The notes: generated by a model from the sequence alone, not told the origin. 64,000 nucleotides of DNA from Camelus dromedarius (GCF_036321535.1 NC_087436.1:38752001-38816000); one strand, 5' to 3'. Counted from the first letter of the stretch, positions 4,975-20,639 are shown. Numbers and translations: made by a program.

Positions 4975-5021
4975 GACCACGGGGAAGCCCAAAGGCAGCA
5001 ACATGCCGGAACCTTCCCAGA
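4975..5021 (+). other. PDE5A: Probable PDE5A3-type alternative first exon (3' end; TSS unknown)
   Basis: Good donor AGA|gtgagt at 5022 lying between A1 and A2, the known A1-A3-A2 order; cccaaaggcagcaacatgccggaaccttcccaga resembles my recollection of the human A3 exon (unverified). Main-frame PDE5A3 would start at exon-2 ATG 20055. Confidence 0.55.
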
Positions 5022-5881
5022 GTGAGTGCTGTCGCCTTTTGCCCCCCTGCAGTCCCCTGATTGTCCCGCGCTCCTCCTTTCCTTCGCTTTTGCGCGCAAG
5101 GCGGCGCCGCGGAACAGGCTACGCGGAGGGGTTTGCGGCGCGCACACAAAGGACACCGGGGAGGCTTGGCGGGGAGCAGACCCCGAGAGGTGTCAGGACC
5201 CGCGTGGCCCGAGGCGACCCCAGAGGCCAGCTCCTCCTGATCCGGAGCCAAGCGCCGGGGCGGCCGTTGCAGAGGGCGGGGAGGAGGGAGCCTGTCCTTT
5301 GGGAGGCGGCGGCGCAGGGGGCAGTCGGAGCGCGCGTGGGAAACGCTCGCGGGAGAGTTGGAGAAGAATTGAGACTGAAGCCGAGGGAGTAGGAGGGTGG
5401 GGTGGAGAGTGAGTGGCGGACGGGTGCTTACTAGCCTGAGGAGTTGGTGCGAAGCCGGGGCGAGGGCAAGGCTGCTGCGCGTGGACTCGGGCTGACTCCC
5501 GGACGCACGCCTTTGGAGAAAGGGCCGGAACCTCGCCGTCGCCGGCCCCCGGCAGCAGCCTTCGGGTAGTTGGCGCTGGCCGCCTCGGCCGGGGAGGGAG
5601 ACGCACGCGGGGAGGTGATGGTGGAGGAGCCGGCCGGGGCTCGGAGCTGGGCTCCCACCCGCCGGCGCGCGGCTGCGGCTCAGCCGGGCGCTCCCCGCCA
5701 GGGGGCGGCGCAGCGCGGGGCAAGTGGGCAGCAGCGGGCGGTGGCGCTACGGCGGGGGCGGTAGAGGAACCGGCTTCGAGTCGCCGGCCTCACCTGGGCG
5801 CGTCGTCGCCCCCGGGCACCTCCTGGAGTCTAGGGGCCGCCGAGGCCGCATGGTCTACACTACGAACTTCCCACCTTTGCT

Positions 5882-5907
5882 ATGTTGCCTTTTGGAGACA
5901 AGACAAG
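5882..5907 (+). CDS. PDE5A: PDE5A alternative first coding exon, isoform A2 (MLPFGDKT + AG)
   Basis: ATG TTG CCT TTT GGA GAC AAG ACA AG|gtactt; MLPFGDKTR is the known PDE5A2 N-terminus; phase 2 is compatible with exon 2. Confidence 0.95.
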
Positions 5908-18529: not shown

Positions 18530-18900
18530 CATTTTTTAACGTCTGCCTAATGTTACATTTATAAATGTGCCATGATGTGATTTGCCCCCCTTCTATAGGT
18601 GGTATTAGGTTGCTTCTTATCTTTGCTATAACAAGCAATACCACAGTAAATAAATATCCCCGTGCTTCCTTTGCCACATGTGAAAAACCTCTGGAACAAA
18701 GGATAAATGTATTTTAAAACTCGTTAGATGTTGCCTGCTTGCCTTCTGAAGAGGTGATTATCGCCTACTTGCCTTCCAAAGAGGTGATATCAATTTTTAC
18801 AGCAGCCAGAAGGATTGGAGAGTGTCTGTGTCCTGACACTCTCCAAAACGGTGCATTGTCCAACTTTTTCATCCTGGCTGTTTGGTGAAAATGATCAATA
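18530..18900 (-). mobile_element. Ancient L1 (L1ME-like) fragment with a 30-bp tandem duplication at 18733-18791
   Basis: taggttgcttcttatctttgctataacaagcaat; gcctgcttgccttctgaagaggtgattatc followed by gcctacttgccttccaaagaggtgatatc. Confidence 0.55.
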
Positions 18901-20050
18901 AGCCACTGTGGAGTGGAGGCTGCATTGCTCTATAAGACGAGTTCTTTTAAATATCCTCGGTGGTAGCAAGTTTTTGTCTTTTGGAAGTAAATTTTAGTTT
19001 TGGAAAAAGTCAAGTCTAATCCTTAAGATATATATTAAGTTAGCTGTTTCTTCAGATTTGTTGTGGTTTTGCTTGTTTTGAGAGGAAGGCTTAGTGAAAA
19101 ACAAGATCTAACTTTTAGATAAAACTAATATTCCTATATGGCTTATTAATTTCTTTTAGAAGCTAGTTTCAGAAGAAGAGTTCCAAAAATGTCTAACGTA
19201 ATAGCACCATCAATTGGTGTAAGATTACATCTTTCCAAGTGGAATTACTTGAATTGAACAATAATCATTTGGATGTGTATGATCTGGTATATTTATTTTA
19301 AAAAATCACCTACTGTGAATGCTTTAGCTCAGCTAGATTTCTTCATAGGTTGGCGCATTAACAACATAAATAATTTCATTCCTCTTGGCCTGAATTCTCT
19401 AGGCCAGTTATTGCCTACTTTTTAATTTTCGCCCTTTATGAAAGGAGTAGATAATCTAGAAGAAGAGATCATCATTTTACCATTACTTGAACAAGCATTA
19501 TTAGAATGATACTAATAGAAGTCTATCTTTCTACTACATACCAGATCAAATTGTTTACATTTTCCTTTTCCCTTTCTAAATATAATCTATATATAGTGCT
19601 GTAGATAAAAACTATCTAAAAATTAAGCATATTGGCTAGCCAAATTTAGGTAAATTTTTAAAAATATTCAACTTCAGAACAAGGTGCATTTTAAATAGCA
19701 CATTATTTTCCATTTTTATGTTCTCCTAAGACTTGTCAGATTTTTTTTTTTACTTTGATACAAACTGATTGTGAGAGGAGCAGACTTGACACTTGATGTG
19801 TTGTAAAACATGTATCTGAAAATATATGTATATAGAAGTCAGACCTTATTAAAATTTTCATTGAAGCAATTGTCCGCCACAGTTTTTCCAAATAAAATTG
19901 TCCTAAATAAACCATCTTGTTTTTATTTTCTATGACAAATTGGATTATAATCTCATCAGTTTACCATGAGGGGATTTTTAGAAGCTTTACGGTGAGGACA
20001 GCACCTTCTCTCCTTAAATGTTTAATGTGTGTACATGTTCTTTCCTGCAG

Positions 20051-20639
20051 AGAAATGGTCAATGCATGGTTTGCTGAGAGAGTTCACACCATTCCTGTGT
20101 GCAAGGAAGGCATCAGAGGCCACCCAGAATCTTGCTCTTGCCCCTCACAGCAGAGTCCCCGTGCAGATAGCAGTGTTCCTGGAACACCAACCAGGAAAAT
20201 TTCTGCCTCCGAGTTTGATCGGCCTCTTAGACCCATTGTTGTCAAGGATTCTGAGGGAACTGTGAGCTTCCTCTCTGACTCGGAAAAGAAGGAACAGATG
20301 CCTCTAACCTCCCCACAGTTTGATAATGATGAAGGGGACCAGTGCTCCAGACTCTTGGAATTAGTGAAAGATATTTCCAGTCACTTGGATGTCACAGCCT
20401 TATGTCACAAAATTTTCTTACACATCCATGGACTCATCTCCGCTGACCGCTATTCCCTGTTCCTCGTCTGTGAGGACAGCTCCAACGACAAGTTTCTTAT
20501 TAGCCGCCTCTTTGATGTTGCAGAAGGTTCAACACTGGAAGAAGCTTCAAATAACTGTATCCGCTTGGAATGGAACAAAGGCATTGTGGGACATGTGGCA
20601 GCTCTTGGTGAGCCCTTGAACATCAAGGATGCGTATGAG
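20051..20639 (+). CDS. PDE5A: PDE5A common exon 2 (589 nt): REMVNAW...[10 protein letters not shown]...IKDAYE; PKG site Ser92 and N-terminal GAF-A
   Basis: Acceptor tttcctgcag|AG, donor GAG|gtaaac; translation near-identical to known PDE5A; Ser92 codon TCT at 20202-20204 in RKIS. Confidence 0.98.

Follow-up and report, generated by a model that had tools for sequence, protein, structure and literature searches.

The 5′ end of PDE5A and its first exons

The window, which is the whole 64-kb stretch of camelid DNA analyzed here, covers the 5′ end of PDE5A. The residues encoded by exon 2 agree with alpaca PDE5A at 194 of 195 positions, and within a CpG island at roughly 3300–6100 lie the coding exon of A1, 'A3', and the exon of A2 (Table 1). 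The N-terminus of PDE5A2 was identical in 47 fetched proteins. Exon 2 lies between acceptor 20050/20051 and donor 20639/20640, and exon 3 begins at 30352. No second copy of exon 2 was found among the candidates scored in this genome (40 of 375). Short interspersed repeats with 70–86% identity to many loci are present in intron 1 at 10576–10690, 14680–14820, and 15750–15960.

Table 1. Features at the 5′ end of PDE5A, in window coordinates.
Feature	Position	Strand	Remarks
PDE5A1 first exon, coding part	4335..4456	+	strong-context AUG; donor 4456/4457; matches alpaca P0157
'A3' exon	4873..5021	+	149 nt; acceptor 4872/4873, donor 5021/5022
Upstream AUG of 77-aa overlapping ORF	5003..5005	+	A at -3, C at +4
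Long 5′ leader of A2 exon, putative	5383..5881	+	5′ start estimated from human intron length
48-codon uORF	5618..5764	+	strong-context AUG; main frame, but stopped
Upstream AUG of 90-aa overlapping ORF	5850..5852	+	C at -3, G at +4
PDE5A2 first exon, coding part	5882..5907	+	up to donor 5907/5908
Common exon 2	20051..20639	+	589 nt; PDE5A3 main AUG at 20055
+1 frame body	20053..20265	+	70 codons + TGA; internal AUG 20062 (67 aa)
Main-frame codons 58–69	20223..20258	+	underlie the predicted C-terminal helix of the +1 peptide

A second AG directly follows the exon-2 acceptor (20049–20052); splicing to it would bring the 2 upstream AUGs into frame with the main ORF. Splice sites disfavor an AG that immediately follows the G after a CAG acceptor. 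As this second AG, 2 bases into exon 2, is in precisely that position, its use was judged unlikely, assuming that the preference applies here.

The first exons have the same order (A1–A3–A2) and a similar spacing as those described for PDE5A by Lin et al. (2000/2002), where the A3 protein starts at the exon-2 methionine; the relevant passages of the 2 papers mention neither an upstream AUG nor a +1 ORF (PMC5716802, PMC5664004). In 2 other papers, 'A3' is defined instead by a primer on the boundary of intron 1 and exon 2 (PMC6704119, PMC9820699).

A shifted frame of exon 2 with several entrances

An earlier note on this sequence had pointed to 2 upstream AUGs that lead into a single open +1 frame of exon 2, and the geometry it described was borne out. 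AUG 5850 lies 32 nt 5′ of the A2 AUG (5882), out of frame with it, and opens a 90-aa ORF through donor 5907/5908 and acceptor 20050/20051. AUG 5003, which does have an A at -3, opens a 77-aa ORF through donor 5021/5022, and the 2 ORFs share the 70-codon body. Their common stop, the TGA at 20263–20265, is located 374 nt 5′ of the exon-2 donor, and the 2 overlapping LxxLL strings reported for the carboxyl terminus are both present. In sequence, this arrangement of an upstream out-of-frame AUG and a stop within the CDS is that of an overlapping uORF (oORF).

The statement that the A1 exon does not feed this frame was correct for direct splicing from donor 4456/4457, after which the +1 frame contains a TAG and then no AUG. 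It does not hold for splicing through acceptor 4872/4873, however, by which the A1 AUG enters the +1 frame and opens a 161-aa ORF with a premature stop at the same TGA. In addition, an internal AUG at 20062, which is located 7 nt 3′ of the PDE5A3 main AUG, opens a 67-aa ORF whatever the first exon. Its context is weak, with a T at -3 and a strong AUG preceding it, and it was present in all 8 +1-frame translations seen, including those of bird and fish. When donor 5021/5022 is skipped, AUG 5003 opens a 129-codon ORF (5003–5392); in a dog model, the same AUG is in frame through to the A2 exon.

Conservation of the upstream AUGs

The spliced frames of pig (P0126) and of the mammalian copies P0172 and P0173 align back to about 5415–5450, indicating that a long A2 leader spanning position 5850 exists in mammals. 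This leader would start near 5383 if the human intron between A3 and A2, given as 361 bp (PMC5716802), carries over to camelids.

The AUG at 5850 was absent from all 7 other readable mammals: pig, human, dog, hamster, squirrel, and the species of P0172 and P0173. It reads as His-Gly in the main frame of the camelid, while the site is occupied in the extended A2 proteins by Pro-Ala in pig, Ala-Glu in human, Arg-Gly in dog, and Glu-Glu in hamster, and no pair in those of squirrel (2 entries, counted once) is compatible with the AUG. In 2 of the +1-frame ORFs, its methionine is replaced by arginine or threonine. The threonine, found in P0173, points to an origin of this AUG by decay of a CpG, from ACG to ATG. 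Of the 10 extended A2 proteins, those of cat, fur seal, and hyena, which start 3 codons upstream, and that of a lizard, which could not be aligned, were uninformative on this site. The cat, fur seal, and hyena starts correspond to an in-frame AUG at 5873–5875, where the camelid has ACC. At 7 codons ahead of the A2 start, human and hamster both have Asn-Glu, a pair under which a further +1 AUG might be concealed; the camelid has TAC at this site, which would favor AAC as the asparagine codon.

For AUG 5003, the dog model P0036 starts at this codon and buffalo is compatible with it, while the Arg-Ala of vampire bat rules it out there. Judging from these alignments, AUG 5003 is the older of the two. 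Neither is a start codon conserved across mammals, as would be expected of a conserved regulatory uORF. The earlier note had named absence from related mammals as grounds for giving up its proposal, and these grounds apply in full to AUG 5850 and partly to AUG 5003, which was absent in 1 of 3 species.

The account of the leaders in terms of 2 AUGs missed both the route through A1 and the 'A3' exon and a further AUG at 5618, which scanning ribosomes would reach ahead of 5850. AUG 5618 starts human model P0143 and squirrel model P0185, is compatible with the sequences of pig, hamster, and P0173, and is not evident in dog; on this comparison, it is better conserved than either AUG 5003 or AUG 5850. 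In human, it opens a PDE5A2 of 921 aa, which is an old automated model. The in-frame N-terminal extension that it adds amounts to 88 aa in human (EAX05277.1) and 58 aa in the squirrel models.

The 'A3' exon as a possible cassette or first exon

Acceptor 4872/4873 ranks 12th among the 1,045 AGs of intron 1 by a crude pyrimidine score, by which the true exon-2 acceptor ranks 15th. In 3 buffalo RefSeq proteins (X1, X3, and X5), the 'A3' exon is spliced between A1 and exon 2, and is thus treated as an internal cassette, unlike the published first exon. The exon measures 147 nt and is in frame in buffalo, whereas the 149 nt of the camelid exon shift the frame. The buffalo peptide aligns to 4871–5022 with 2 frameshifts, and the vampire bat peptide to 4858–5022. 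Use of donor 5021/5022, on which the 77-aa ORF depends, is real in relatives, as the exon ends there in the buffalo models and in vampire bat X1 and X2. In the latter, the exon extends further upstream, which makes use of 'A3' as a first exon plausible as well. The intron from A1 to acceptor 4873 is 416 nt long here; the corresponding A1–A3 intron in human is given as 434 bp (PMC5716802), suggesting that the human A3 exon may also begin at this acceptor.

The camelid exon has the sequence features of a poison cassette: an acceptor, a donor, and a premature stop upon inclusion, in the 161-aa ORF. This effect is not conserved across species, as the buffalo exon is in frame. As in cassettes that couple alternative splicing to NMD (AS-NMD; PMC8082775), inclusion of the 149 nt shifts the frame and leaves a stop more than 50 nt before a junction. 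Unlike those, the frame is not conserved, the stop lies in a long exon, and any regulation is putative. The word content of 4200–5910 was also looked up in 14 RNA or RNA-guessed runs among the 24 listed, where its share (0.41–0.76) exceeded the 15% of the stretch that the A1 part makes up by itself and came near the 54% of the 3 exons together. This was not counted as evidence.

How far a stop in this frame would lead to NMD depends on where it lies. The limits for escape described in PMC8082775 are a start-proximal zone of 150 nt and a long exon of more than 400 nt. NMD is likely to be partial, because the stops lie 231–483 nt from their starts, yet within an exon of 589 nt. The expectation that initiation at the upstream AUGs would favor NMD is therefore upheld as far as the distance of 374 nt to the junction is concerned, but has become less certain, since exon 2 exceeds the 400-nt limit. 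In a meeting abstract, transcripts with a premature stop in the first exon of human A2 are reported not to be lost (PMC4565074); as that stop is start-proximal, it bears only loosely on the +1 ORF.

These features could reflect a selected off-switch, in which the 'A3' exon, as a regulated poison cassette or as a first exon bearing an AUG, tunes PDE5 in smooth and cardiac muscle. It would divert output of the upstream promoter to NMD or to +1 translation, so that much of the 'PDE5A3 mRNA' would be unproductive. The good acceptor and the use of the donor in relatives are in line with this, as are the fit of the A1-to-A3 intron length with the acceptor at 4873 and the position of the stop, which follows the A1 AUG by 483 nt and precedes the junction by 374 nt. 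Furthermore, a cassette held in frame was confined to buffalo clusters, which accounted for 2 hits out of 42 candidates, and a review attributes all 3 isoforms to the upstream promoter and limits A3 to smooth and cardiac muscle (PMC5716802). However, the exon is in frame in buffalo, vampire bat has a 5′-extended exon without the AUG, exon 2 exceeds the long-exon limit, and the cassette junction 4456-to-4873 is known from the buffalo models and only predicted here. In the openly readable literature, no papers were found that pair PDE5A with 'poison exon', which was counted as neutral. On balance, we consider a selected off-switch possible but unlikely. As leads, a possible cassette role of 'A3' and AUG 5618 are more useful than the +1 ORF itself.

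Openness of the +1 frame and constraint in relatives

The earlier note had allowed that its 2 AUGs may have come to share a frame by chance. A stop in the +1 frame requires a main-frame codon with a T in the middle, followed by an A or G as the next base, and just 8 of the first 71 junctions between codons can form one. The frame is open because this stretch has few Leu, Ile, Val, or Met codons before a purine. The same number of stop-capable junctions was found in 113 of 148 fetched exon-2 proteins (range 6–11). With the protein fixed, the probability of an open frame of at least 70 codons was 0.08, 0.15, or 0.22 under 3 models of synonymous codon choice, and the number of AUGs in 4457–5881 was at the level of shuffled sequence (6, against 7.0 ± 2.0 in 200 shuffles). 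The feature is therefore not clearly beyond chance. In neutral simulations of the camelid codons, the same stop was kept in 71% of runs at 15% third-base divergence, falling to 27% at 40%. Two LxxLL strings arose in just 0.3% of synonymous shuffles, for a motif picked post hoc.

A phmmer search of 1.84 billion representative sequences returned 6 hits; as such a search returns open frames only, this number has no denominator. P0172, P0173, and P0175 are mammalian ORF calls in the +1 frame that share the same end residue, and P0175 fits the rat protein throughout. P0176 matches over 42 residues before diverging, and was used for AUG 20062 only. P0174, from an oomycete, has no matched stretch and was set aside as spurious. 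A word-indexed search with the +1 body gave a single candidate, a fox gene model that was also among the 6 phmmer hits. This model (P0003, CAK7316765.1), annotated as 'PPIA' in Arctic fox, joins 50 residues of PPIA to the +1 frame of PDE5A exon 2. The fox copy has the same end, and its frame is still open although 6 of its changes do not fit the dog enzyme. It was rejected as evidence for a microprotein, since the prediction is chimeric and the copy looks decayed; the decayed-looking exon copy hints at a PDE5A duplicate in fox. Where DNA was available, the +1 frame runs for 56 codons before a stop in a bird-like copy and for 2 in a fish-like one. One of 3 metagenome loci was left out because it reaches no further than the 3′ portion of exon 2. 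We infer that mammals inherited the open state of the +1 frame.

Each +1 residue reports on the third base of a main-frame codon, so that divergence can be read from the +1 proteins. Camelid and rat-type copies differ at 10 of 44 third-base sites. Between bird and camelid, 23 of 47 codons are identical within the ORF, and 65 of 108 outside it. No general synonymous constraint across the overlap is apparent from these comparisons. One hint for function remains: at codons 58–69, 12 consecutive third positions are unchanged in the camelid, P0172, P0173, and P0175. Among these 4 mammalian copies, the run had a permutation p of 0.019 on 43 sites, post hoc, and of 0.24 on a stricter set of 24 sites, and 3 of the 12 sites are located where a synonymous transition would make a CpG.

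This run could mark an element of 36 nt that acts at the RNA level, such as a splicing enhancer, with the open frame and the helix merely riding on it. Long exons rely on splicing enhancers, and exon 2 is long (589 nt), so that the 12 unchanged sites would fit such an element. However, the element is not kept in bird, its predicted fold is not unusual (z -1.05), the stricter site set gives p = 0.24, and the run takes P0172 and P0173 as separate copies, whatever their relatedness. We therefore regard an RNA element as quite unlikely.

The +1 peptide

No Pfam family matched the +1 peptide. Its predicted structure, from an alignment of 5 rows, had a mean pLDDT of 59.8 and a pTM of 0.23, with a single helix at residues 53–69 (pLDDT 72–84). 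Glycine and proline are present within the LxxLL motifs; a helix is predicted, and nuclear-receptor binding is putative. PDE5A has no row in the human GENCODE Ribo-seq table of 7,264 ORFs (PMC10032668), where PDE4DIP, PDE3B, and PDE8A were found as controls. It is likewise absent from the lists of human alternative proteins detected by MS (PMC3741303). Absence from such catalogues may reflect the choice of tissues or the difficulty of calling overlapping ORFs. The CHO Ribo-seq supplements (11 of 14 files searched whole, and 1 in part) contained rows at the gene level only. In the openly readable literature, no description of a PDE5A uORF, +1 ORF, or poison exon was found. For the unannotated microprotein that had been suggested, neither a Pfam family, nor a fold beyond the single helix, nor an entry in these catalogues was found.

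Exon 2 could nevertheless be dual-coding, with a functional microprotein of 67–90 aa that attaches to a partner or membrane by its leucine-rich C-terminal helix. Its translation would begin mainly at AUG 20062, reached by leaky scanning, or at AUG 5003. The common end and the identical 12-residue stretch in 4 mammalian copies agree with this, as do the predicted helix and the presence of AUG 20062 in all 8 translations. Against it, the rest of the peptide varies as third-base drift predicts (64–80% identity), and 3 of the 5 motif leucines, as well as AUG 20062, sit where a synonymous transition creates a CpG. Moreover, a proline lies inside the second LxxLL, AUG 20062 follows a strong AUG with a T at its own -3 position, the bird frame stops before the helix, and neither Ribo-seq nor MS lists have an entry. 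A functional microprotein is, in our view, very unlikely. A combined scheme, in which exon 2 has a dual use in placental mammals, with the 'A3' exon as a muscle-restricted switch into a +1 frame with a selected helix, and with 'PDE5A3 mRNA' yielding mainly NMD and a product of 67–161 aa, seems similarly improbable to the RNA element discussed above.

Probably an ordinary overlapping ORF

The reading that we prefer, and consider probable, is that of an ordinary alternative ORF that overlaps the start of PDE5A exon 2, with peptides that are unstructured by-products and a brake on translation that varies between species and is mostly non-adaptive. Ribosomes that enter exon 2 one base out of register would read 70 codons to the same TGA, and could do so from 4 entrances: AUG 5850, a putative product of CpG decay in camelids; AUG 5003, patchy in laurasiatherians; AUG 20062; and the A1 AUG by way of the cassette. 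Those starting at 5003, 5850, or the cassette-linked 4335 would pass the starts of PDE5A2 and PDE5A3 and stop in exon 2. Transcripts with the long A2 leader or the A3 exon would then yield less enzyme and be partly prone to NMD. This effect is proposed from the scanning model and the rules of NMD, and builds on the frames, splice signals, and patchy AUGs observed above; from the scanning model, some repression in camelids would follow. Several observations count against by-products: the stop shared with 3 further mammalian copies that appear functional, the run of 12 sites, the rarity of the LxxLL pair, the sharing of AUG 5003 with dog, and the +1 AUG that the Asn-Glu pair of human and hamster may conceal. 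Even so, the +1 ORF looks mostly accidental, at most dampening minor transcript forms, rather than like a hidden protein.

A few mammalian loci are known to be dual-coding, such as INK4a/ARF, XLalphas/ALEX, and ATXN1/Alt-ATXN1, with detected proteins and dedicated coding first exons. The resemblance is to INK4a/ARF, where, as here, an alternative 5′ end leads into a common exon 2 in another frame. Unlike at those loci, the parts contributed by the first exons are 6–19 codons long, the AUGs are not conserved, and there is no known product. The ORF also resembles overlapping uORFs and AltORFs, with an out-of-frame AUG in the leader, a stop in the CDS, and a length close to the 57-aa median of AltORFs (Vanderperre 2013, PMC3741303; PMC10032668). 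AltORFs of at least 40 codons are predicted in 87.6% of human mRNAs (PMC3741303). In contrast to these, several entrances share one body here through alternative splicing, and translation is putative, with no entry found in the human catalogue.

On present evidence, the +1 ORF is a mostly ordinary and species-limited finding, with one camelid-only start and one patchy start. Sildenafil acts on PDE5A, which is also a locus for coronary disease, and the 3 N-termini of PDE5A have no known function (PMC5716802). AUG 5618 predicts a longer PDE5A2 in human (921 aa) and a uORF in other mammals. If 'A3' is largely a frameshifting cassette, or an exon with an inhibitory AUG, the level of A3 mRNA would not report that of A3 enzyme; if true, this would place PDE5 output under unrecognized post-transcriptional control.
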